Shown piece after piece: positions 24,438 to 36,760 of a stretch of 64,000 bases of DNA (within the stretch, counting starts at the first letter, position 1; every line of letters begins with the position of its first letter). Under the pieces are notes generated by a model, which did not search any database, had not been told where the DNA came from, and was given only the letters and a program-made list of their open reading frames with translations. Location of the stretch: positions 7,383 to 71,382 of the forward strand of contig JAPOWQ010000032.1 in assembly GCA_026707585.1 (NCBI GenBank), given 5' to 3'. A program made the translations under genes and the position numbers. The stretch comes from Chloroflexota bacterium (lineage in GTDB: Bacteria; Chloroflexota; UBA11872).

Positions 24438-26120
24438 ATGACGCTGCCGTCAGGCTTGGAGGCTTCCGTGGCTGCGTCGCGTCCGCCGTCGTTTCAGGCG
24501 CTGTATAACCGCTATCGGCCGCAGCGGTTTGATGAGCTGATCGGCCAGGAGCACGTGGTGCGGACGCTGCAGAACGCGCTGGTGCATAACCGGCTGAGCC
24601 ACGCATACCTGTTTTCGGGCGAGCGAGGCACCGGCAAAACCACGGCGGCGCGGCTGTTGGCGAAGGCGGTGAATTGCCTGGAAGGGATCCAGGCGGAGGC
24701 GTGCGGCAGCTGCGAGCACTGCCAGGCCATCACCAACGGGGCGTTCCTGGACCTGATCGAGATGGATGCGGCCTCGCATCGCGGGATTGACGATATCCGC
24801 GAGATCCGGGAGCTGACGCAGTTCGCGCCGGGGGCGGGGCGCTTCCGCGTGTACATCATCGACGAGGTTCATCAGCTGTCGGCGCCGGCGAAGGACGCGT
24901 TGCTGAAGACGCTGGAGGAGCCGCCGCCGCAAACGCTGTTTGTGCTGGCGACGACGGAGCCGCACCGGGTGCCGGCCACGATTCGGTCGCGGACGCAGCA
25001 CCTGACGTTTCGTCGTATTGGCGTGCTGGAGTTGACCGCGCAACTGCGCAGCATTGCCGAGACGGAGGAGGCCCAAATCCAGGAGGCCGCGCTGCACACG
25101 CTGGCTCGGAACGCCGGCGGCAGCGCGCGGGACGCGGTGAGCCTGCTGGACCAGGCGCTGGCGTATAGCGATAACGACGCCACCTCAGAGGCCGTGAACT
25201 CGATGTTGGGGCTGACGGCGCGCGACGCGGTGATTCAACTGCTAGGCCACTTGATGGACGGGGACGCCGCGGCCGGTCTGCAGGCGATTGGACAAGCCAT
25301 CGAGGACGGGACCAGCCCGAACACGCTGCGTCAGCAGATCATCGACATCCTGCGGGACATCCTGATCCTGAAGACCAGTCCCGAGACGAGCGCGGTCGGT
25401 CACCTGACGGAGGACGAGGCGTTTGAGCTGTCGCGGCGCACGGAGAGCTCGAGCCTGCGCGACATCGTGCGCACGCTGGAGGTGTTCGCGGAACCGGACC
25501 CGCCATCACGGACGGGCGTGGACGCGACACTGGAGCTGGAGCTGGCGTTCGCGCGCGCGGTGCTCTCGATTACCGAACCCGTGGAGGCCCCGGCGCCGGT
25601 GCCGGCGGCCAGCGAGACTCGACCTGCGGCTCGTCCCTCGCCCGCACCCGCGCCCGCGCGGCCGGTGGAGTCGCCGACCGCTCCAACGACGCCTCCACCG
25701 CAACCGGCGCAGGCAGCGGCGGGACGCCCGGCCGCCCCCGATGGCGACCTTTCCGCGGCGATGATCGCGGCCCGCAAGGACGATTGGGTCTCGGTGATCC
25801 GCGAGGAGGCTCGCGAAATCGCCCCGTACGCCGGGGAAGCCGAAGTCCTGGACTACGCTGACGGCACGGTGACGCTGGGCTATCGCAGTCGCTTCCTGTT
25901 CGAGCGGGTGCAGCGGCCCGACGCCCTGCGCCAGGTGGCGCGGGCGCTGTCGCAGGTGCTAGACCGCCCGATCCAGGTTCGCAACGAACAACGCAGCGCC
26001 TCGACACCAGCCCGTCGCACGTCGGCCAGGACACCGGTTGACGACGATCCGGTGGTGCGGGTGGCAATGCGCGAGTATGGGGCGACATCCATTCCAGACA
26101 CGTCCGCAACGGGAGGTTGA
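24438..26120 (+). CDS. dnaX: DNA polymerase III subunit gamma/tau
   Basis: YRPQRFDELIGQEHVV, Walker A GERGTGKTT, zinc module CGSCEHCQ, and a Pro/Ala-rich linker. The start may be the GTG at ~24468. Confidence 0.9.
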   Translation: MTLPSGLEASVAASRPPSFQALYNRYRPQRFDELIGQEHVVRTLQNALVHNRLSHAYLFSGERGTGKTTAARLLAKAVNCLEGIQAEACGSCEHCQAITNGAFLDLIEMDAASHRGIDDIREIRELTQFAPGAGRFRVYIIDEVHQLSAPAKDALLKTLEEPPPQTLFVLATTEPHRVPATIRSRTQHLTFRRIGVLELTAQLRSIAETEEAQIQEAALHTLARNAGGSARDAVSLLDQALAYSDNDATSEAVNSMLGLTARDAVIQLLGHLMDGDAAAGLQAIGQAIEDGTSPNTLRQQIIDILRDILILKTSPETSAVGHLTEDEAFELSRRTESSSLRDIVRTLEVFAEPDPPSRTGVDATLELELAFARAVLSITEPVEAPAPVPAASETRPAARPSPAPAPARPVESPTAPTTPPPQPAQAAAGRPAAPDGDLSAAMIAARKDDWVSVIREEAREIAPYAGEAEVLDYADGTVTLGYRSRFLFERVQRPDALRQVARALSQVLDRPIQVRNEQRSASTPARRTSARTPVDDDPVVRVAMREYGATSIPDTSATGG

Positions 26121-26123
26121 CGC

Positions 26124-26420
26124 ATGTCGATGAAGATGTTCCGGCAGTTTCAGAAGCAGATGGAGAAGGTCCAGGAAGAACTGAAGCAGATGACCGTGGA
26201 AGCCACGGCGGGCGGCGGCGCGGTCAAGGTCGTGGCCAGCGGGGACCAGCGGGTTGTCTCAATTGACATCGATCCGTCCGTGATCGATCCCGAGGACGCG
26301 GAGTTTCTGGCCGAAATGATCCTGGTAGCAGTGAACGAGGCGATGGAGCAGTCGCAGGAATTGGCGAAAAGCAAGCTGGGCGGGTTGACCGGCGGGCTGA
26401 AGATTCCGGGCCTGGGCTAG
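26124..26420 (+). CDS. ybaB: YbaB/EbfC nucleoid-associated protein
   Basis: 98 aa; MFRQFQKQMEKVQEEL...GGLKIPGL. Canonical position after dnaX. Confidence 0.9.
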   Translation: MSMKMFRQFQKQMEKVQEELKQMTVEATAGGGAVKVVASGDQRVVSIDIDPSVIDPEDAEFLAEMILVAVNEAMEQSQELAKSKLGGLTGGLKIPGLG

Positions 26421-26423
26421 CGC

Positions 26424-27026
26424 GTGGCGGACGCGCTGCCCCGCGCGGTTACGCGGTTGATCGAGGAGTTGTCGCGGCTGCCGACCGTGGGGCCAAAAAC
26501 CGCGCAGCGTCTGGCCTTCTTTCTCTTGCGCGGGACATCAGGCCAGGCGCGCACGCTGGGGACGGCCATCGCGTCGCTGCACGAGGGCATCCAGACCTGC
26601 GGGCGGTGCCGTAACTTCGCGGACTCCGACCCGTGCGCAATCTGCCAGGACCCCACGCGCAACACCGCGCTGCTCTGCGTGGTGGAGGACCCGCTGGACC
26701 TGGTGGCGGTCGAGAACTCGGGCGGGTTCAACGGCCTGTATCACGTGCTGCACGGCGCCATTTCGCCGCTTGAGGGGATCGGGCCCGACGATCTGACGAT
26801 CGACCTGCTGGTGCGGCGGGCCGGGCGCGAGCGCATCGGCGAGGTGGTGATTGCGACCAACGCGACAATTGAGGGCGACGCCACGGCGATGGAGATTCGC
26901 CAGCGGCTGAGCGACCTGGGGGTGCGCGTCACACGGCTGGCGCGCGGGCTCGCGACCGGCGGTGACATCGAGTACGTTGACGCGGCAACCATCGCGCAGG
27001 CGCTGGAGGGTCGGCGTGAACTCTGA
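26424..27026 (+). CDS. recR: Recombination protein RecR
   Basis: HhH (LPTVGPKTAQRLAFFLL), C4 zinc finger (CGRCRNF...CAIC) and Toprim domain. GTG start. Confidence 0.9.
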   Translation: MADALPRAVTRLIEELSRLPTVGPKTAQRLAFFLLRGTSGQARTLGTAIASLHEGIQTCGRCRNFADSDPCAICQDPTRNTALLCVVEDPLDLVAVENSGGFNGLYHVLHGAISPLEGIGPDDLTIDLLVRRAGRERIGEVVIATNATIEGDATAMEIRQRLSDLGVRVTRLARGLATGGDIEYVDAATIAQALEGRREL

Positions 27027-27738
27027 ACCTTCGTCCCAGCCCGACACGCGGGCCCGCGGCCAACCGACGCGGCTGCGCTGGCTGGGCCACGCGACCTTCC
27101 TGCTGAGCAGTCCCGGCGAGGCGCAGGTGCTGCTGGACCCGTTCAACGTGGAACTCGGCTATCCCGTGCCGGAGTTGCCGCCGATTGACCTGGTCGCGGT
27201 CAGCCACGAGCATGCGGATCACAACAACGTGGGGCTGGCGCCGGGGACGCCGAAGGTTGTGCGGGGCATCTCGGACAGCGGCTGGCATCCGGGAACGGTA
27301 TCGGTGGGCGACGTGACGCTGCACATGATCGGCGGGGCCTATCACGACGAAGCTGAAGGCCGGGAGCGGGGACGGACGGCGTTCATGTCGGTGGAGGTGG
27401 GCGGGCTGCGCCTGCTGCACCTGGGCGATCTGGGGCACCGGCTGGGCACAAACCTGCTGGCTCAGTGCCGGGGCCACCAGGTGTTGCTGATTCCGGTTGG
27501 CGGATTCTTCACGATCGACGGCGAGACGGCGGCCGCGACGATGGATGAGATTGCACCGTCAATCGCGATTCCGATGCACTACCGGACCTCGCGTCTGCCC
27601 GGACACCCCACGGCGCCGCTGGATGAAACCGGGTTCCTGGTAGGCCGCGAGGTCCGGCGCTTGGCGGAGTCCGAGATTGCGTTGCGTGCGGAGGAGCTAC
27701 CGGCCCGGCCGCAGGTGGTGGTGCCGGCCGTCCCGTGA
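27016..27738 (+). CDS. MBL-fold metallo-hydrolase
   Basis: HxHxDH motif (VSHEHADHNN) and the MBL beta-sandwich pattern. GTG start overlaps the recR 3' end. Confidence 0.65.
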   Translation: MNSEPSSQPDTRARGQPTRLRWLGHATFLLSSPGEAQVLLDPFNVELGYPVPELPPIDLVAVSHEHADHNNVGLAPGTPKVVRGISDSGWHPGTVSVGDVTLHMIGGAYHDEAEGRERGRTAFMSVEVGGLRLLHLGDLGHRLGTNLLAQCRGHQVLLIPVGGFFTIDGETAAATMDEIAPSIAIPMHYRTSRLPGHPTAPLDETGFLVGREVRRLAESEIALRAEELPARPQVVVPAVP

Positions 27739-27740
27739 GG

Positions 27741-28295
27741 CTAGCTTCCGGGTCGGCGTGGGGGCAGGCAGGTTACTTCGGCTTCCTTGGTCAGGTCGTC
27801 GAAGTGGGCTTCACGGACGTTGCCGACTTCCACGGACGTGATCCTGGCTGACACCCGCACGGGTTCGTGGACGAGGCAACGCAGGGCCGACTCCCAACGC
27901 AGGGTGACTCCGGCGCGCAGGCGTTCGGGAACCCAGGTCAGAGTCTTGGATTCGCGAGCGCTGGCGCCGATCTCGCGTCCGTCCTCGTTCGTAATCTTGG
28001 CCCGCGTGGTGGGACTGTAGTCACGGTCTGAGCCCGCATTCTCGGGCAGCGTGAGGGTTGTCTCGATCAGGACGTCCGCTTGACCGATGTTGGTCACCTG
28101 CAGGATGACGTTGGTGCGGCTGGGTCCGGCCACCTCGGTCTGAATCTCGAATCTGAGTTCGGGCGCGGGGGTGGGCGTCGCGAGTGGCTCTACGGTCTCG
28201 CGGCAATCAGCGGCGGCCAGCCCCATCAGCAGCATGGCCAGCGACGCCACGGCTGACGCCAGGCGCCGACCGTGGACAGTGAATCCAGCGTTCAT
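27741..28295 (-). CDS. Secreted/lipoprotein-like hypothetical protein
   Basis: Signal peptide with Cys (LMGLAAADC); no recognised domain. Confidence 0.45.
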   Translation of the reverse strand: MNAGFTVHGRRLASAVASLAMLLMGLAAADCRETVEPLATPTPAPELRFEIQTEVAGPSRTNVILQVTNIGQADVLIETTLTLPENAGSDRDYSPTTRAKITNEDGREIGASARESKTLTWVPERLRAGVTLRWESALRCLVHEPVRVSARITSVEVGNVREAHFDDLTKEAEVTCLPPRRPGS

Positions 28296-29507
28296 GACCT
28301 AGAGCTTAGTGCAGAATGCGCCGTTGTCGGAGGTTTGCGCTGCGACGCGCCAAATCCAGGGGTCCGGAACATCGAACGTCCGCTGACGATCACGCTGCTT
28401 TTTCTGCGGCTGGGGCTGACGGCCTTCGGTGGCCCTGCGGCACACATCGCCATGATGCGGCACGAGTTCGTGACGCGCCGCGAATGGCTGACGGACCGCC
28501 GTTTTCTCGATCTCCTGGGGGTCACAAACCTGATCCCTGGTCCGAATTCCACCGAGATGGCGATTCACCTTGGCCGCGAACGGGCCGGCTGGCGTGGGCT
28601 GGTGGGCGCCGGGGTGGCGTTCATTGCTCCGGCTGCGGTGATGGTTTCGGTCCTGGCCTGGGTCTATGTCGAGTTCGGATCGACGCCGGCGGTGACCTGG
28701 GTGTTGTACGGCGTCAAGCCCGTCGTAATCGCTATCGTGGCCCAGGCCATTTGGGGCCTGGGACGCGTGGTGGTGCGCCGCTGGCAGACGGCGCTGCTGG
28801 CCGCGGGTGTAATTGCCCTTGGTCTACTGGGCGTCAATGAGCTGGTGCTCCTATTTGGCGGCGGCGCTGTGGGCGCGGTGCTGCAGCGTCCGCGGTGGCT
28901 GACGGGACGGCTCTCGGGAGTGCTTGTCGCGCCGCTGGCCAGCGTCGGCGTGGTCGGCGCGGTACCGACGACGTTCAGCCTGCTGGGCATGGCGTTGCTG
29001 TTTCTCAAGATCGGCGCGGTGCTATACGGCAGCGGTTATGTGTTGCTGGCCTTCTTGCGGGCCGATTTTGTGGAGCGCATGGGCTGGCTGACGGAAACAC
29101 AATTGCTGGACGCCGTGGCGATCGGGCAGGTCACGCCGGGGCCCGTATTCACCACGGCCACGTTTATCGGGTTTCTGCTGGCGGGGGTACCGGGCGCCGT
29201 AGTGGCCACGGTGGCGATTTTCCTGCCGTCATTCGTGTTCGTGGCAGCCGTTCACCCGCTGGTCGAGCGGCTGCGCGCGTCCAGCATTACGGCTCCCATA
29301 CTCGACGCGGTCAACGCGGCCGCGGTGGGGCTGATGACCGTGGTGATGGTGCTCCTTGGTCGCTCGGCGCTGGTGGACCTGCCGACAATCCTGGTGGCGC
29401 TGGTGGCGCTGGGCGTACTGATCTTCGCCAAGGTCAACTCGCTCTGGCTGATCCTCGCGGGTGCGGCTGTGGGCGCCGTGGTGCAGGGCGTGGGACTGGC
29501 GCCGTAG
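28272..29507 (+). CDS. chrA: Chromate transporter (CHR family, ChrA-like two-domain)
   Basis: GLTAFGGPAAHIAMM...NLIPGPNSTEM motif and a duplicated CHR domain. Start uncertain: the listed ATG overlaps the divergent gene start by 24 nt, and TTG 28335 is an alternative. Confidence 0.75.
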   Translation: MDSESSVHDLELSAECAVVGGLRCDAPNPGVRNIERPLTITLLFLRLGLTAFGGPAAHIAMMRHEFVTRREWLTDRRFLDLLGVTNLIPGPNSTEMAIHLGRERAGWRGLVGAGVAFIAPAAVMVSVLAWVYVEFGSTPAVTWVLYGVKPVVIAIVAQAIWGLGRVVVRRWQTALLAAGVIALGLLGVNELVLLFGGGAVGAVLQRPRWLTGRLSGVLVAPLASVGVVGAVPTTFSLLGMALLFLKIGAVLYGSGYVLLAFLRADFVERMGWLTETQLLDAVAIGQVTPGPVFTTATFIGFLLAGVPGAVVATVAIFLPSFVFVAAVHPLVERLRASSITAPILDAVNAAAVGLMTVVMVLLGRSALVDLPTILVALVALGVLIFAKVNSLWLILAGAAVGAVVQGVGLAP

Positions 29508-29632
29508 CCGAAGCGCCCAGCAGGAGGGCGGCGCAGGCTGGCGAATGCGCGGTTTGGCGTCCGCCGCAGATCCGATTCAGGCTGGTTTCCCACGACCGGC
29601 TAGGCGAGCGTCCCGGATTCCGCGCATACTGA

Positions 29633-30976
29633 TTGAGTGTGGCAGGAGCGCCGGGGAGCGATCCCGGCGCTGACATGGGCGGTGGAGGCCCTGTGGCAAG
29701 CGCGCCGTCCGAAGCTGGTCCCTCGGTAACCCTGCAGCGGCCCTCGATCGTCATCCTGTTGGGCGTGCTGCTGGTGGCCGCGATGGTCACAACATCGCCG
29801 ATCGCGTACTGGCTGCTCTACGCGCTGGGCGGACTGGTCATCCTCTCCTACACCTGGACGCGCAACGCGGCCCGCGCGTTGCAGCTCCGCCGCCGGCTGC
29901 GGGGCCACCAGATCACGGTCGGCGACGAGGTCCAGGAGGACTTCGAACTCATCAATACCGGCCGCCTGCCGATTCTGCTGGTGGAAGTGGACGACCATTC
30001 GGAGCTGCCGGGCTACCAGGCCTCTGTAGCCGAGAGCCTGGGTCCGCGCCAGCGCAAGCGCTGGATTTCGCGGGGCGTCGCCAGTAGGCGCGGCCTCTAC
30101 GGCCTGGGGCCGACCGATCTGCGTATTGGCGACCCGTTTGGAATCTTCGCCTCGGAACGGCGGATCGATACCCGCAATACGATCGTGGTCTATCCGCCGA
30201 TCTCCATCATGGCTGACGTGGAAATCCCGGCCGGGTCGATGGTCGGCACCTCGCGATCGTCGATTCGAACTCACCAGGTCACGTCGGACGCCGGCGGAAT
30301 CCGGGAGTTTCAGCCGGGCGATCCGCTCAAGCGCATTCACTGGCTGTCCAGCGCGCGGCGCTCGCAGCTTCTGGTCAAGGAATTCGATCTCGAGCCGACG
30401 GCCAACCTCTGGATTGCGCTGGACCTGGATCGGGCGGTGCAGGCTGGGCACGGCGACGAGTCCACGGAGGAATACGGCGTCAAGATCGTGTCCTCGCTGG
30501 CGCACCAGTTCGTGCGCGACAACAAGGCGGTGGGGTTCGTAGCCCTGAGCCGGCACGGGCGCTACCTGATCGAGCCGCAAAAGGGTCTCAAGCAGCTTTG
30601 GCGAATCCTGGAAACCCTGGCGGTGGTGCAGGCCACCGGCACCGCGCCGTTTCACGAGTTTTTGACCGCCAGCGCGGCCGGGCTGGGGCGCGGAACCAGC
30701 TTGGTGGCGATCACACCCTCGGCCGACGCGCGCTGGTTGACCAGCCTGACGCAACTGGGACATCGCGCGATCTACCCAATGGCGGTGGCGCTGGACGCCT
30801 CCACGTTCGGGCCGGCGGATTCGAACGCCGGACTCAGCCAGGCCGCAGCCGCTTCGGGCATCGGCTTCGTGAGCGTGGACCGGGGTATGCGCTTTGAGAT
30901 GATCCGGGCCGACGGCCGCAACCTGGCAGAGTTCGAACGCACCCAGCGACGGCCGGTCACGTTGGCCCCGGCATGA
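29633..30976 (+). CDS. DUF58-domain protein (vWA-like) with N-terminal TM segments
   Basis: DUF58 hallmark IREFQPGDPLKRIHWLSSARRSQLLVKEFDLE. Confidence 0.8.
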   Translation: MSVAGAPGSDPGADMGGGGPVASAPSEAGPSVTLQRPSIVILLGVLLVAAMVTTSPIAYWLLYALGGLVILSYTWTRNAARALQLRRRLRGHQITVGDEVQEDFELINTGRLPILLVEVDDHSELPGYQASVAESLGPRQRKRWISRGVASRRGLYGLGPTDLRIGDPFGIFASERRIDTRNTIVVYPPISIMADVEIPAGSMVGTSRSSIRTHQVTSDAGGIREFQPGDPLKRIHWLSSARRSQLLVKEFDLEPTANLWIALDLDRAVQAGHGDESTEEYGVKIVSSLAHQFVRDNKAVGFVALSRHGRYLIEPQKGLKQLWRILETLAVVQATGTAPFHEFLTASAAGLGRGTSLVAITPSADARWLTSLTQLGHRAIYPMAVALDASTFGPADSNAGLSQAAAASGIGFVSVDRGMRFEMIRADGRNLAEFERTQRRPVTLAPA

Positions 30977-30983
30977 GCGCTCC

Positions 30984-33401
30984 ATGACCGCAGCCGTGGC
31001 CAGCCGTCCGCGTCCGCTGGCGCGCGCCCTGCAACTGCCGCGCACCGCCTGGTTGCCTCTGACCCTGATCGCCACCACCACGCTGGCGCCACTGCTCAGC
31101 GTTCACACGGTTGGTTGGGCGCCCGGCACGGAGGTGCTGCTGTCGGTCGCCTTGGTGGCCATCCTCTTTGGGTTCGCGCTGTCGCGCACCCGGCTGTCGT
31201 CGATCTGGATCGTGGCCATCGGCATGGTCAGCGACCTTGTCGTCGCCTACATCGTGGCTTCGGAAGCGTTTCCGGGTCCGCTGGACGCGATCCGGAACTT
31301 CGTGCTGCTCTTTGGCGACACGGTGGAGTGGGTCCAGCTGCGGCAAGCTGGAAACCTGGTGCGTGAACAGCCCCTGGCAGCGGCGGTTGGCGAGAGCACC
31401 GGACTGTTGCAGGACCTGTTCTTCCGCCTGGAGTCGTGGTTCCAGGCCGCGTTTGCTTTCCAGGTCAGCCGCGACAACATTGTGTTTCTCTTCTGGATGA
31501 CCATGGCCGCGTGGGGCATGGGGTTCACCGCGGCCTGGGCGGCGTTTCGTCTTCGCAACGCCTACCTGGCCATCGCCCCCGGCACGCTGGCGATCGCCGT
31601 CAACATCACCTACGTGGGTCCGGACTGGCCACCGTTCGCGGTGTTTCTGATTGCGGCGCTGGCGCTTACGGTGCATACGCGGCTGGCCTGGCTGGAGGCT
31701 CGGTGGGACGACACGCGGACGGACTATTCCGAGGAGCTTGGGCCCACCGTCCTGATCGTGAGCGCCCTGCTGATCACCGCCGTCGTATTCCTGGCGCTGA
31801 TCTTGCCGCGGGCGGCCGGGAACCCCCTGGCCGAGGCCTTCTGGACCTATATGGGGGACGGCTGGGGCAACGTGGAAGCCGGCATCCAGCGCGTGTTCGG
31901 GGGCGTATCGAATCCCTCAGGTTCCACGCTGGCCGGTCGGGAGACGCTAGCGCTAACGGGACCCGAACCGTTTGCGCGCAAGGAGACGCTGATTATCGAA
32001 AGCACGGTGCCCTCGTACTGGCGGGGTCAGACTTTCGACACCTATACCGGCCAGGGATGGCGCAGCACGATGCGGCTGCTGGAAGGACGCCGAGCCAACC
32101 AGCCGATAACCGAGACCCTGAACCTGAAGTCGCGCCTGGCGTCGCGCTCCAACATCGAAATCCTGGATTCGAACTCGGCCATTCTCTTCGCGCCGGGCGA
32201 CGCCCTGCGTCTCAACCGCCCGTACCAGGTACAAGTGGAGGAGCGTGAGGTCGCCATTGAGGACTACGCCTCGATTCGCGCCACGCGCCGGGTGGGTCAG
32301 CGGCTCGTGTATTCCGTGGACTCGACCCTGGCGGCGGCGACGACGCAACAGCTGCGGACGGCGCCCACCGTTTACCCGGCATGGGCGGAGCGTTACATCG
32401 CGCTTCCCGAACTGCCCCCACGGGTTCTTGAATTTGCCGCCCGCCTGGCGGAAACCGGCGAAACAGCGGTGGACCGGGCGCGTGCCGCCGAGTTCTTCAT
32501 GCGGCGTTTTCCCTATGCCCAGGACACGGAGCCCCTGCCGCCTGATCGCGACGCCACCGACTACTTTCTCTTCGACCTTCGCCGAGGACACGCCACGCAG
32601 ATCGCCTCGACCATGGCCGTGCTGGTTCGGGCCATGGGCATCCCGGCTCGGGTGGCCGCCGGCTACGCGCAGGGTGTCTTCGATCCGGTGACCCAGCGCT
32701 TCATCGTGAATCCCGCCGACGCGCACACCTGGGTGGAGGTCTTCTTCCCGACCTACGGATGGGTGCTCTTTGAACCCTCCGGCTTTCGAGCTCCCGAGGT
32801 GCGCGGCGGGGCTACCGAGGGCTTCGAAGGCGAGGGGCTGAATCCGGACGCCGCGGACTTGTCGATGGTCGATGACTTCCTGGACGAACTCGAGGACATG
32901 GACGTGGGCAACTTCCAACCGCTGGATCCATCCCAAGGCACGAACCAGGTTCAAGAGTTCCTGGCCAACCTCGGCGGGGCGGTTCTGGCGCTGATCATGA
33001 TTGGCGTCGCGCTCGCCGGGTTGGGGGCGCTCTATCTGCTGGGGACCCTGGTCCGCGACCTGATCCAGAGTCCGCAGGCCGCGGTGGGGCGCCGTTACGA
33101 GCGAATGGTCCGCTGGGCGGGACGCGCTGGGTACAATACGCGCCGCGGGTTCACGCCGGTCGAACTTGGCCGCCAGCTCGCCGCCGAGCTTTTTCCGGCG
33201 CCCGCCACTGAAGCGCCCACCAATCCTTCCGCCCCGCCCGAAGTAGTTGCGGAAACCTATGTTCGCGCCACCTATGGCCGGCGGCAGATCACACGCTCGG
33301 AGCGACGCATGGTTGACAAGGCTTGGCGGCGGGTGCGCCTGCGGCTGGCCGTACGGATCATCGGGCGGCCCTTGCGTCGCCTCACGCCGTCTCGAGCCTG
33401 A
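30984..33401 (+). CDS. Polytopic membrane transglutaminase-like (TgpA-like) protein; predicted catalytic Cys to Ala and Asp to Glu
   Basis: Six or more N-terminal TM helices. Transglutaminase-core region FLFDLRRGHATQIAS...GIPARVAAGY...DAHTWVEVFFPTYGWVLFEPS, compared with the canonical RRG.C..[FY]AS...H.W.EV...W...DPT. C-terminal TM and charged tail. Confidence 0.8.
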   Translation: MTAAVASRPRPLARALQLPRTAWLPLTLIATTTLAPLLSVHTVGWAPGTEVLLSVALVAILFGFALSRTRLSSIWIVAIGMVSDLVVAYIVASEAFPGPLDAIRNFVLLFGDTVEWVQLRQAGNLVREQPLAAAVGESTGLLQDLFFRLESWFQAAFAFQVSRDNIVFLFWMTMAAWGMGFTAAWAAFRLRNAYLAIAPGTLAIAVNITYVGPDWPPFAVFLIAALALTVHTRLAWLEARWDDTRTDYSEELGPTVLIVSALLITAVVFLALILPRAAGNPLAEAFWTYMGDGWGNVEAGIQRVFGGVSNPSGSTLAGRETLALTGPEPFARKETLIIESTVPSYWRGQTFDTYTGQGWRSTMRLLEGRRANQPITETLNLKSRLASRSNIEILDSNSAILFAPGDALRLNRPYQVQVEEREVAIEDYASIRATRRVGQRLVYSVDSTLAAATTQQLRTAPTVYPAWAERYIALPELPPRVLEFAARLAETGETAVDRARAAEFFMRRFPYAQDTEPLPPDRDATDYFLFDLRRGHATQIASTMAVLVRAMGIPARVAAGYAQGVFDPVTQRFIVNPADAHTWVEVFFPTYGWVLFEPSGFRAPEVRGGATEGFEGEGLNPDAADLSMVDDFLDELEDMDVGNFQPLDPSQGTNQVQEFLANLGGAVLALIMIGVALAGLGALYLLGTLVRDLIQSPQAAVGRRYERMVRWAGRAGYNTRRGFTPVELGRQLAAELFPAPATEAPTNPSAPPEVVAETYVRATYGRRQITRSERRMVDKAWRRVRLRLAVRIIGRPLRRLTPSRA

Positions 33402-33404
33402 GCC

Positions 33405-33689
33405 GTGGACCTGGCAGGCGTTCGCGATATTGCGGTGGTGGTACTCGCGGCGGTGGCGCTCGTGACAACCATCATCATCCTCATTACCGGGATGTTGGTA
33501 TGGCGTCTGCTGGCCGCGATCCGGGCTGATGTCGCGCCGATCGTTCAGTCGGCCCGGGAGACGGTAGATACCGTCCGAGACACCACGGAATTGGTTAGTG
33601 ACGCGGTGAAGGACGGCACGAGTTCAACCTCGGGCGCTCTCCGGAAGTTTCGTCGAGTTCTGCAGATGGCGCTGCGCTGGTGGAACTGA
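33405..33689 (+). CDS. DUF948-like small membrane protein
   Basis: N-terminal TM helix followed by a coiled/charged region. Start 3 nt after the transglutaminase-like gene stop. Confidence 0.45.
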   Translation: MDLAGVRDIAVVVLAAVALVTTIIILITGMLVWRLLAAIRADVAPIVQSARETVDTVRDTTELVSDAVKDGTSSTSGALRKFRRVLQMALRWWN

Positions 33690-33938
33690 GTGGAATCGCA
33701 TATGGCCTGGATCGTCATTGGCGCAGCCGTCGGGTTTTTTGTGGGCGGAGCGATCGGTACGATCGCCGCGCCCCAGCGGGCGCAGAAAATCATGGATACG
33801 TTGCCAGAACGGTTGAGCGCCATCCGCAGCGCGGCGGAGCAGGCGGCCAGGGAGGCTGAAGCGACGGTGCGACGTCGCTCCCAGCGCTCGCGCGGGCGCC
33901 GACGCCGCCGTAGCCGGGGACGCCGCGGTCGGGGCTGA
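33690..33938 (+). CDS. YtxH-like small membrane protein with Arg-rich tail
   Basis: MAWIVIGAAVGFFVGGAIGTIAAP is YtxH-like. Zero-nt gap from the upstream gene. Confidence 0.4.
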   Translation: MESHMAWIVIGAAVGFFVGGAIGTIAAPQRAQKIMDTLPERLSAIRSAAEQAAREAEATVRRRSQRSRGRRRRRSRGRRGRG

Positions 33939-34252
33939 TGGAAGCCGCGCGCGACATTGCGATCATCCTCCTGGTGATCCAGGGACTGATCGTTGGGCTG
34001 GCGGCGTTCGTCGCCGGAGTCCTTGGGTCCATCGCCATCGTGGAAGCCACCGTGAACGTACGGCGAGGTCTGCGGCGAACCGCCGCAAAGCTGGAGCGGA
34101 CAAACAAGCGTGTGGACTCGATTGTCGAGACGCGCGTTCTACCGCCAATCATCCAGTACCACCGCGGACGGGCGGCGGCACGTTCCACGCTGGAGCAGGC
34201 GCGGCGAGCGCTGGACGACCTTAAACGGACGGCTGGCGTCGGCAGACGCTAA
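33938..34252 (+). CDS. DUF948-like small membrane protein (paralogous architecture to the 33405 gene)
   Basis: TGATG stop/start overlap with the upstream gene; N-terminal TM plus a helical region. Confidence 0.45.
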   Translation: MEAARDIAIILLVIQGLIVGLAAFVAGVLGSIAIVEATVNVRRGLRRTAAKLERTNKRVDSIVETRVLPPIIQYHRGRAAARSTLEQARRALDDLKRTAGVGRR

Positions 34253-34826
34253 ACGGCAGGCTGGCCGAGGGCTTCCGCTTCAGGCTCTGGAGTTCGTCGC
34301 GCAATGCCCGGAGCCGACGGTAGCAGCCGACGAGGTCGTCGAACGAGTAGCGCGTGTTCAAACCGCTCGGGCTCGGAACCACGAATACCACTGACGATTC
34401 CAGCGCGCGGGCCTGACGGCCCGGCCCTGGGCGCGCCGGTGCGGGGAGCCCCTCGCCATGTCGGAGGTAGCTGCGATAGCCATCGATGCCCTGAAAGCAG
34501 ACGACACGGGGCTGAAAGCGCCTGATCTTTGCCGTGAGGATCGGCGACCATCGGCGGTAGTCGGCGGCGCGAAGGTCCTTTGCCGCAGAGGTTGGGCGCT
34601 TCACGACGTCGGTAAGGCCGATGCCAAACTCCAGAACCCGGGCGTCGGTCTCGGGCCCTAGGGGCTCGCCGAACAGGCCGGCCTGGTTAGCGGCGTTCCA
34701 GAAGCGGTTGCCGGGCCGGGCGTAGTAGTGGCCAATTCGCGCGGAATACGCCCCGGGGTTGATACCGACAAGCACAATATCGAGTCCGGGCCCAAGGTAA
34801 TCAGGCAGCGTCTTCATGGGCTTCAC
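34221..34826 (-). CDS. mug: G/U mismatch-specific DNA glycosylase (Mug/TDG family)
   Basis: GINPGAYSARIGHYYARPGNRFW motif. Confidence 0.75.
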   Translation of the reverse strand: MKPMKTLPDYLGPGLDIVLVGINPGAYSARIGHYYARPGNRFWNAANQAGLFGEPLGPETDARVLEFGIGLTDVVKRPTSAAKDLRAADYRRWSPILTAKIRRFQPRVVCFQGIDGYRSYLRHGEGLPAPARPGPGRQARALESSVVFVVPSPSGLNTRYSFDDLVGCYRRLRALRDELQSLKRKPSASLPFSVCRRQPSV

Positions 34827-35044
34827 GGTGCTGGCTCATGGCTCGTCGTTCTTTCTGAAGTCGCACGGCGGCTTGGTGACTTGGGTCTGCCGAGGCAGGC
34901 GTAGTCCCCTCGCGCCGGGATTGGTCGGTGAGGGCGGATTCGCACGTGCGCCGGACACGCGGAGATCAAGCATGGCCTCCGCTCATGTTGCAGCCCTGCG
35001 GCACGACGTGAGGCGGCTGGCTAGAATACGGCGGAGCGCCCTCG

Positions 35045-35683
35045 TTGAATCCTGAACACATCCCAACGTACGCCCTCGTGGGCGTGATTGCCTACATGAT
35101 TGGCAGCGTGCCGGCGGCGTTGCTGGCGACGGCGATCCTCAAGCGGTCGGACCTGCGCAACACCGGCTCCGGCAACCTGGGCATCCAGAACACGTTCTTC
35201 CGAGCCGGCAAGCTTCCCGCCGTCATCGCCCTGCTGTGGAACGTGGCCGCGGCCGCCTCGTCGGTGATGCTGGCGCGGGCGCTGGCGCCAGACGAACCCG
35301 CGGTGGAGTTGATCGCGATCACAGCCGTCACCACGGGCAGCATGTGGCAGATTTTTGTGCGGTTCCGCGGCAGCCGCGGCACCACTACCATGGGCTTCGC
35401 GCTGCTGGTGGCCCAGCCCGCGATCTGGGCCGTGTGCCTGGGGGTCTGGCTCCTGGCTCTGCTGCCGCGCCGCCGGACCACCGACGCTACCCCCACGGTT
35501 CACGCGCTGCTGCCCGCCATATTTGCCATGTACGCCCTGTTCGGCAATCCCGACCCGTGGTGGATCTACGCAATCTGGGGCGGCGTGCTTGGCGCGCTCC
35601 TCGAATTGAAGCGCCGAACCAGTCCCGACGACGCCCTGGCGCTCGGCTTGTACCGGCGCTTCGGCGTCAACGTGCACGAGTAG
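35045..35683 (+). CDS. plsY: Glycerol-3-phosphate acyltransferase PlsY (acyl-phosphate dependent)
   Basis: GSGNLG motif and 5 TM segments, ~210 aa. Confidence 0.85.
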   Translation: MNPEHIPTYALVGVIAYMIGSVPAALLATAILKRSDLRNTGSGNLGIQNTFFRAGKLPAVIALLWNVAAAASSVMLARALAPDEPAVELIAITAVTTGSMWQIFVRFRGSRGTTTMGFALLVAQPAIWAVCLGVWLLALLPRRRTTDATPTVHALLPAIFAMYALFGNPDPWWIYAIWGGVLGALLELKRRTSPDDALALGLYRRFGVNVHE

Positions 35684-35701
35684 CCGCACGAGGCCCGCGC
35701 G

Positions 35702-36760
35702 CTGCGCGTCGCGTTCAACGCCTACTTTCGGCGCCTACCGGACACGGGTTCTGGCCAGTACCTGGGTTCACTCGTGCAGGCCCTGAGGGCGGGCTACCCC
35801 GACATCGTGATCAACGAGCACACACCGCCTCGGATTCTGAGTGGCCATGCCGGCAAGGTCGCGTGGGAGCAGGCGCTGTGGCCATGGCGGGCGCGCGGCG
35901 CCCTTGGCCATGCTCCCTACCTTGCACCGCCGCTGCTCGCGCCAGGGACGGTCGTAACCGTCCACGACCTGATCCCGCTGGCGATGCCGGCGTATCGGGC
36001 AGGTCGCGGCCAGGCTCTCTACTTCTGGTTGGTTCGAGCGGGTTTGCGGCGGGCGCGAACCCTGATAGCCGACTCTGAATCGACCCGAAACGATCTCGCG
36101 AGGCTGGCGGGCGTCTCGTCTGGTCGAGTCCACGTCGTGCCGCTGGGTGTCGATGAGCGCTTTCGTCCCGCAGACGCGGCAACCCGTTCCCACGCCCGCC
36201 AGCGGTTGGGGTTGCCGGAACGATTCGGCCTGTTTCTCAGCACGCGTGACCTGCGCAAGAACCTGGGCGTGGTGCTGGCGGCCTGGCCGGAGGTCTGGCG
36301 GACCTGTCGCTTGCCCCTGGTCGTCGCCGGGCGCTCGCCGCGCCAGGCCAGCCGCGTCTACGTCGACTGGTTCGCCGACCTCGATCCCAGCGCCGACGAC
36401 TGGCTGCACGTATACGGTCCCGTGGACGAACGCGACAAGCCTGATCTCTATCGCGCGGCCGATGTTTTCGTCTTCCCCTCCCGCTACGAAGGCTTCGGTC
36501 TGGATCCGCTGGAAGCCATGGCCAGTGGCGTGCCGGTGATCGCCGCCAGGGCGACATCGCTTCCCGAGGTGGTCGGCGATGCCGGTCCGCTCCTGCCTCC
36601 CGACGAGCCGGCCGCTTGGTCCGACGCTATTGCGGCGATGGCCTGCGATTCCGCAGCGGCCACCGAGATGCGCGAGCGCGGCCTCGCGCGCGCGGCGACG
36701 TTTACCTGGGCCCGGACCGCCGAACGCACGCATGCCGTCTACCGCCAGGCGTCGATATGA
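35702..36760 (+). CDS. Family-4 (GT-B) glycosyltransferase; start unresolved
   Basis: C-terminal GT4 motif (FVFPSRYEGFGLDPLEAMASGVPVI). The conserved N-terminal GT4 region (LRVAFNAYFRRLPDTGSGQYLGSL) lies upstream of the first GTG (35774), in frame with plsY and right after its TAG. The only candidate start is CTG 35702. Confidence 0.65.
   Translation: MRVAFNAYFRRLPDTGSGQYLGSLVQALRAGYPDIVINEHTPPRILSGHAGKVAWEQALWPWRARGALGHAPYLAPPLLAPGTVVTVHDLIPLAMPAYRAGRGQALYFWLVRAGLRRARTLIADSESTRNDLARLAGVSSGRVHVVPLGVDERFRPADAATRSHARQRLGLPERFGLFLSTRDLRKNLGVVLAAWPEVWRTCRLPLVVAGRSPRQASRVYVDWFADLDPSADDWLHVYGPVDERDKPDLYRAADVFVFPSRYEGFGLDPLEAMASGVPVIAARATSLPEVVGDAGPLLPPDEPAAWSDAIAAMACDSAAATEMRERGLARAATFTWARTAERTHAVYRQASI

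Follow-up and report, generated by a model that had tools for sequence, protein, structure and literature searches.

In a 64,000-nucleotide (nt) stretch of contig JAPOWQ010000032.1 from an uncultured Chloroflexota bacterium (hereafter, the window), five genes at positions 29633–34252 of the plus strand form a real, conserved operon that is a lineage-specific variant of known membrane modules. The first two genes encode a DUF58 protein and a TgpA-type membrane protein with a transglutaminase (TGase)-like domain, and the other three encode small membrane proteins, which we call sA, sB and sC. Two features appear to be new: the linkage of the DUF58-TgpA pair to the small genes, and the clade of cysteine-less TgpA proteins to which the second gene product belongs. 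A first-pass annotation of the window had pointed out the five co-directional genes and supposed their arrangement to be undescribed. The open reading frame (ORF) coordinates confirmed the tight packing, with intergenic gaps of 7, 3, 0 and −1 nt (the last as TGATG). Our literature searches, which found the PFNA, PA2875-tgpA, Esr and MoxR-von Willebrand factor A (vWA) systems, returned no description of DUF58-TgpA genes linked to YtxH- or DUF948-like genes, nor of a TgpA clade without the cysteine.

For comparison, we assembled 45 related loci by looking up the neighbourhoods of TGase homologs and scanning a single genome of each species; all titled records among them are uncultured Chloroflexota metagenome bins. 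All of these 45 loci carry the five genes in an unchanged order, and the TGase homologs form a graded identity series from 96% down to 41%. The lengths of the small proteins are 92–97 amino acids (aa) for sA, 66–82 aa for sB and 94–108 aa for sC, except that the sB of L046 carries an insertion and reaches 118 aa, and that the locus L012 ends inside sB. The gene junctions are short or overlapping, and the junction between the DUF58-TgpA pair and the small genes measures 2–15 nt in all loci. Meanwhile, the flanks turn over; as a set, ChrA, DnaX-YbaB-RecR and Mug drop away at identities under about 60%. The ChrA gene disappears at TGase identities under about 63%, the flanking Mug gene is present only at 84% TGase identity or higher, a dnaX-ybaB-recR block accompanies the cluster in some subclades only, and the group with 41–43% TGase identity adjoins an insertion sequence (IS) element or acetyltransferase/P-II genes, giving at least four different flanking contexts for the order-invariant cluster. 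Since the flanks change while the five genes persist, the five genes are a conserved and selected unit and neither leftover synteny nor a chance neighbourhood. The first-pass annotation had proposed such a survey, which found the small genes recurring after the TGase gene in every one of the 45 loci. The three small ORFs are also under purifying selection, with nonsynonymous-to-synonymous rate ratios (dN/dS) of 0.05–0.24 at dS 0.4–1.1 in comparison with close relatives (0.05–0.12 for sA and 0.06–0.15 for sC), and are therefore real genes.

Four more distant loci served as outgroups. In L007 (29% TgpA identity), an overlapping MoxR-DUF58-TgpA triad lies beside mraZ; in L004 and L005 (31%), a cysteine-retaining DUF58-TgpA pair stands with neither MoxR nor small genes nearby; and in L006 (26%), TgpA is alone. 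The neighbourhoods of several loci hold further genes. Several divergent subclades have a phosphoribosyltransferase-family gene after the cluster (L001, 13254–13814; L048, 8824–9360; L002, 14663–14950); this gene overlaps sC in L001 and is not found at that position in the window. The region 1800–12412 of L004/L005 holds, near the DUF58-TgpA pair, three genes for M42 peptidases and, on the other strand, another TGase+DUF4129 paralog. The same pair is preceded by a soluble 99-aa ORF, which we considered as a relative of sA, sB or sC and rejected as soluble and unrelated.

The product of the second gene matches TgpA_N, Transglut_core (E = 1.2e-18) and DUF4129, all above the Pfam gathering thresholds, and its predicted order is an N-terminal multi-transmembrane (TM) domain, an extracytoplasmic TGase-like core, one TM helix and a cytoplasmic DUF4129 domain. 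The charge bias of the protein, acidic over residues 281–655 and basic over residues 692–805, suggests that the former region is outside the cell and that the basic DUF4129 tail is in the cytoplasm. In a profile-based alignment, residues 417–612 match the structure of TgpA from Pseudomonas aeruginosa (6g49) with an E-value of 1e-26. Here, Ala537 occupies the position of the catalytic cysteine; the counterparts of its motif, RRGH-A-TQIAS, are GY-C-DY and GF-C-EQ in the outgroups and SGF-C-AHYA in 6g49, and the register is confirmed because a solved TgpA structure aligns. The nucleophile position is Ala in 29, Ser in 15 and Pro in one of the five-gene loci (45/45 without Cys), and Cys in 4/4 outgroup loci (L004/5, L006 and L007). 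Furthermore, the window protein has no cysteine among its 805 residues, and neither do most TGase cluster representatives of the clade. The Cys-His-Asp/Glu triad is thus incomplete, with Ala537 at the cysteine position and His581 and Glu597 present.

With Ala in place of the nucleophile and not one cysteine in the chain, the gene 2 product, judged from its sequence, is catalytically dead and can be neither a transglutaminase nor a protease of the cysteine type. The label 'transglutaminase-like' in the first-pass annotation holds for the domain content, and the loss of the cysteine, which that annotation missed, argues against the enzymatic envelope remodelling it had suggested. His581 and Glu597 are invariant among the five-gene loci, as are numerous aromatic residues and glycines of the ectodomain, which implies that the ectodomain fold, and probably a binding site, is maintained. 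Given the loss of the nucleophile, the TGase-like domain most likely would act as a binding or scaffold domain and not as an enzyme. Moreover, the serine seen in 15 loci is not conserved across the clade; catalysis therefore cannot be the clade's conserved function.

The assignment of the first gene to DUF58 was confirmed by the Pfam hidden Markov model (PF01882, E = 6.8e-16, 58.5 bits against a gathering score of 23.4). This protein begins with a hydrophobic N-terminal hairpin (the stretch at residues 30–63 and beyond), followed by a vWA-like DUF58 domain predicted to be cytoplasmic. Its metal ion-dependent adhesion site (MIDAS) motif is degenerate (DLDRA), and does not discriminate between the systems since the MoxR-linked homolog in L007 is likewise degenerate. 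DUF58 proteins are typical partners of MoxR ATPases (PMC12067865), and the first-pass annotation had remarked that no MoxR gene stands beside the pair. Searching with the MoxR of L007 (tblastn, to E≤10), we found none in the 64 kb window apart from a weak similarity to DnaX, and a Walker-A scan of the window with a loose pattern covering 'DVPGVGKT'-type MoxR returned only DnaX and an ATP-binding cassette (ABC) protein. Likewise, none of the 45 five-gene loci has MoxR within ±10 kb. The missing neighbour is not unique to the five-gene cluster, as the L004/L005 pair of another lineage is also without it.

These data bear on the possibility that the operon is a canonical MoxR-dependent system, served in trans by a MoxR from elsewhere on the chromosome, with the small genes being accessory or unrelated. 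The DUF58 protein is the most conserved of the five (54–97% identity across the 45 loci) and belongs to a family of usual MoxR partners, and the MoxR search covered ±10 kb per locus and the 64 kb window, all of which would suit a distant MoxR gene. However, the complete lack of nearby MoxR contrasts with L007, where MoxR is directly upstream with overlapping genes, and a MoxR in trans leaves both the loss of the cysteine and the conserved small genes unexplained. Moreover, tgpA of P. aeruginosa is an essential gene, but its MoxR neighbour PA2875 can be dispensed with (PMC3507681), which fits lineages that have done without MoxR. We therefore regard a trans-acting MoxR as unlikely, though worth keeping in mind.

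The three small proteins differ in how closely they resemble known families. First, sA has a short N-terminus, a TM helix and a cytoplasmic helix; the hydropathy and charge suggest that the N-terminus is outside. Its orthologs share invariant positions that include R7, D8, A10, W33, R34, P45, I46 and T53. The proposed DUF948 identity of this protein did not hold: against PF06103, the window sA scored 7.9 bits (E = 4.8; gathering score 37.2), and 14 of 16 orthologs matched, all below the threshold (best E = 0.0038). Instead, sA belongs to a large family uncovered by Pfam and remotely DUF948-like; an exhaustive search of 50%-identity clusters with the sA profile gave 638 matches at E≤1e-3 and 184 at E≤1e-10, and in this wider family 6 of 57 members matched DUF948, all of them weakly. 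Second, sB has a glycine-zipper TM helix with the invariant glycines G11, G15, G19 and G23, an AP-x-x-(G/A) motif, an amphipathic helix and an Arg-rich tail. The YtxH-like designation is better supported among the orthologs (14 of 16 orthologs match PF12732, best E = 4e-8, and the L002 ortholog has a precomputed PF12732 match), and is weaker for the window protein itself, which at 19.1 bits (E = 0.0019) is below the gathering score of 37.5. The tail, RRRSQRSRGRRRRRSRGRRGRG, is encoded at 33870–33935 and is kept in most subclades; the subclade with 41–43% TGase identity, whose sB has 66 aa, lacks it.

Third, sC has a long hydrophobic N-terminal helix followed by a basic helix predicted to be cytoplasmic. 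It too had been taken for a DUF948 protein, and this call was not supported: the window sC has no DUF948 match and no credible match to Pfam as a whole, with weak matches to DUF948 in 3 of 16 orthologs (best E = 7.6e-4) and to LapA_dom in 4 of 16. The sC family comprises 87 clusters and is apparently restricted to the clade; most matches carry no source name, and the source-named ones are all from Chloroflexi/Chloroflexota except for one partial contig binned as Hydrogenedentes. A profile-profile comparison with hhalign matched sA to sC with a probability of 84% and an E-value of 7.8e-6, through a common N-terminal RDIA(V/I)xxL motif and the TM helix, and sC is therefore probably a divergent paralog of sA. 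The AlphaFold2 models of both proteins are single long helices (predicted local distance difference test scores of 85 for sA and 74 for sC), which makes a fold search with either of them meaningless. The distribution of charge would place the basic tails of sA, sB and sC in the cytoplasm, and the predicted layouts of sA and sC fit that of FacZ as described in PMC10914604, in which a short N-terminus outside the cell leads into a single TM helix, followed by a coiled coil in the cytoplasm and a basic tail.

Relatives of the small genes also exist outside the clade. A gene for an sA-like protein directly precedes a bona fide YtxH gene in L052 (51.5 bits against the gathering score of 37.5) and in L055/56, in unrelated contexts where DUF58 and TGase are not nearby. 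Such pairs in unrelated contexts, like ytxG(facZ)-ytxH of Bacillus subtilis, indicate that the five-gene operon joins two known modules. Other sA relatives with neither DUF58 nor TGase nearby are those of L049 and L050, both of which have another kind of small ORF downstream, and that of L053, which has a small ORF upstream. A small multi-TM ORF (83–93 aa), an sA-like protein and YtxH make up a recurrent trio outside the clade. In L051–L053, the multi-TM ORF and the sA-like gene are just downstream of mnmA; the YtxH of the trio is present only in L052 and L055/56, and L053 lacks it. The small ORFs upstream of the sA-like genes in L052, L053 and L055 were considered as sC relatives and rejected, being multi-TM and unrelated.

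The free-standing sA-YtxH pairs, together with DUF58-TGase pairs that exist without small genes and the confinement of the five-gene loci to one phylum, are what would be seen if a DUF58-TgpA operon had merely come to lie beside an independent ytxGH-like operon in a single lineage, with no functional coupling. This fortuitous adjacency is hard to reconcile with the short DUF58-TgpA/small-gene junction found everywhere and with a gene order that is invariant down to 41% TGase identity and across the changing flanks. In addition, the catalytic cysteine is missing in exactly those loci that have the small genes (45/45 loci versus 0/4 outgroups), which argues against mere adjacency. We thus consider fortuitous adjacency improbable.

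Comparison with characterized systems shows what the operon shares with each of them. The closest parallels to the first two genes are PA2875-PA2874-PA2873 (TgpA) of P. aeruginosa, in which a DUF58 gene is likewise tightly linked to a following TgpA-type gene whose product has N-terminal TM helices, a core alignable to 6g49 and DUF4129, and the actinobacterial-type triad of L007, with homologous DUF58 (26% identity) and TgpA in the same order and with overlapping genes. The P. aeruginosa system has MoxR and a TgpA that is active in vitro, whereas the Chloroflexota operon has no MoxR gene, an alanine in place of the cysteine and three additional small genes. L007 differs in the same respects, having MoxR directly upstream, a retained catalytic cysteine (GYCEQ) and no small genes downstream. 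The bifidobacterial PFNA cluster (pkb2-fn3-MoxR-DUF58-tgm) also has adjacent DUF58 and transglutaminase core genes (PMC8430577, PMC12067865), but its MoxR ATPase, FN3 protein and Ser/Thr kinase have no counterpart in the Chloroflexota operon, and it lacks small FacZ/YtxH-like genes. MoxR-vWA ternary systems combine MoxR with a vWA-like partner and sometimes a transglutaminase, and EsrD of the Esr pathway has been suggested as the anchor of a surface sensor (Kaur et al. 2020 eLife); the five-gene operon has no MoxR, kinase, FHA, beta-propeller sensor or effector. Neither the five genes nor their flanks include the PFNA, Esr or MoxR-vWA components (MoxR, kinase, FN3, sensor). For the small genes, the parallel is the ytxG(FacZ, DUF948)-ytxH-brxC operon of B. 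subtilis (PMC8113031) and FacZ of Staphylococcus aureus, with the same order and predicted layout of sA and sB. Unlike this operon, the Chloroflexota genes lack BrxC, include the extra paralog sC and are joined to DUF58-TgpA, and both sA and sC fall below the DUF948 gathering threshold. In FacZ (YtxG, DUF948), a TM helix at the N-terminus is followed by a coiled coil in the cytoplasm and a disordered, basic tail, and loss of the protein results in aberrant membrane invaginations and misplaced division sites (PMC10914604).

Taking these data together, we think it somewhat better than an even chance that uncultured Chloroflexota joined two pre-existing membrane modules in a lineage-specific operon and that the five proteins act as one complex. 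The first module would descend from the widespread MoxR-DUF58-TgpA envelope module, having no adjacent MoxR and having lost the nucleophile cysteine. The second would consist of a single-pass pair, one FacZ/YtxG-like and one YtxH-like, plus another FacZ-like paralog, and the basic, helical tails of these small proteins would face the cytoplasm. The five genes are probably transcribed together, and their products would assemble into one membrane complex, in which the dead TgpA ectodomain may hold or sense an envelope component outside the cell, and the cytoplasmic DUF4129 and vWA-like DUF58 domains may be organised by the oligomeric coiled-coil small proteins in place of the MoxR ATPase. By analogy with FacZ, the role of such a complex potentially would be envelope or membrane homeostasis, or the placement of envelope synthesis. 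The 'stress module' of the first-pass annotation could be drawn only by analogy to B. subtilis ytxGH. A stricter proposal, that TgpA and DUF58 are non-catalytic scaffolds physically coupled to FacZ/YtxH-type proteins that replaced MoxR in this clade, is a doubtful one, to which we give little weight at present.

Several points weigh against the two-module complex. The complex and its function are deduced from comparative genomics. The analogy to FacZ is remote, as the DUF948 and YtxH assignments of the window proteins are below the Pfam thresholds. All of the loci are from one phylum, and shared ancestry thus contributes to the synteny, with the turnover of the flanks arguing against pure inertia. 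The invariance of His581 and Glu597, with serine at the cysteine position in 15 loci, leaves formal room for non-cysteine chemistry in some members of the clade. The DUF58 protein may yet work with a MoxR whose gene lies in another part of the genome. Finally, a promoter and terminator scan of 28000–35200 was uninformative, with no promoter-like sites and with terminator-like matches all within coding regions.

An active envelope-remodelling module, in which the TGase-like domain, assisted by small stress proteins, would cross-link or cleave proteins of the envelope under stress, is very improbable, since the in vitro transglutaminase activity of the P. aeruginosa TgpA periplasmic domain (PMC3507681), the invariant His581 and Glu597 and the 15 serine loci are outweighed by the alanine in 29 loci including the window, the proline in one, the Cys-free window protein and a serine that is not conserved.

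The operon offers a natural separation-of-function case, as the clade keeps DUF58 and TgpA under purifying selection without the nucleophile cysteine; their conserved role in the clade needs no cysteine catalysis and apparently no adjacent MoxR. The strict linkage to FacZ/YtxH-like proteins also provides a guilt-by-association lead between two sets of poorly understood envelope proteins. If the scaffold proposal were true, the essential role of TgpA-type proteins would be structural, in envelope or division-site organisation, and not enzymatic, and YtxH and FacZ-like proteins would have their first defined partner. The immediate impact is modest because the operon is confined to uncultured Chloroflexota and is known from comparative genomics.

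Table 1. Features of the five-gene operon, in positions of the window.
Feature	Position	Strand	Assignment or basis
Gene 1, DUF58 protein, 447 aa	29633..30976	+	PF01882 match, E = 6.8e-16
Gene 2, TgpA-type membrane protein, 805 aa	30984..33401	+	TgpA_N + Transglut_core + DUF4129
Codon 537 (Ala) of gene 2, catalytic-cysteine position of TgpA/transglutaminase	32592..32594	+	Alignment with outgroups and 6g49
Gene 3, sA, 94 aa, single-pass membrane protein	33405..33689	+	FacZ/YtxG-like, remotely DUF948-like
Gene 4, sB, 82 aa, YtxH-like	33690..33938	+	YtxH 19.1 bits in the window; orthologs clearer
Gene 5, sC, 104 aa, single-pass membrane protein	33938..34252	+	Probable divergent paralog of sA

Upstream of the operon (Table 1), the adjoining gene encodes a chromate transporter (275 bits), in agreement with the first-pass annotation, and the dnaX-ybaB-recR block of the window is located at 24438–27026. 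Downstream, a convergent gene of the Mug/uracil-DNA glycosylase (UDG) family occupies 34221–34826 on the minus strand, and its 3' end shares 32 nt with that of sC (34221–34252). Scans of the surroundings and of the five proteins gave no further elements: Rfam returned no RNA families in 27000–36000, the repeat search returned short chance matches only, PADLOC matched no defence system, NCBIfam gave no above-threshold match for any of the five proteins, and no further paralogs of sA, sB or sC were found in the window.

Two of the genes have an uncertain start. For gene 1, both ATG 29675 and GTG 29693 are candidates; GTG 29693 has GGAGG four nt upstream and corresponds to the called start of the L001 ortholog. 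Gene 4 may begin at ATG 33702, which would give a 78-aa protein and a 12-nt gap to gene 3 instead of 0. With the starts as tabulated, the TGA stop of sA abuts the GTG of sB (33687–33692) in the same frame, and read-through would fuse sA and sB; in other subclades, the sA-sB gap is 3–13 nt and does not always keep the frame. As to composition, the window has a G+C content of ~67%, and the five encoded proteins have no cysteine in 1532 residues, for which ~10 would be predicted from the 0.66% average of 13 other long ORFs of the window. This absence is not universal, as cysteine is present in some sC orthologs.

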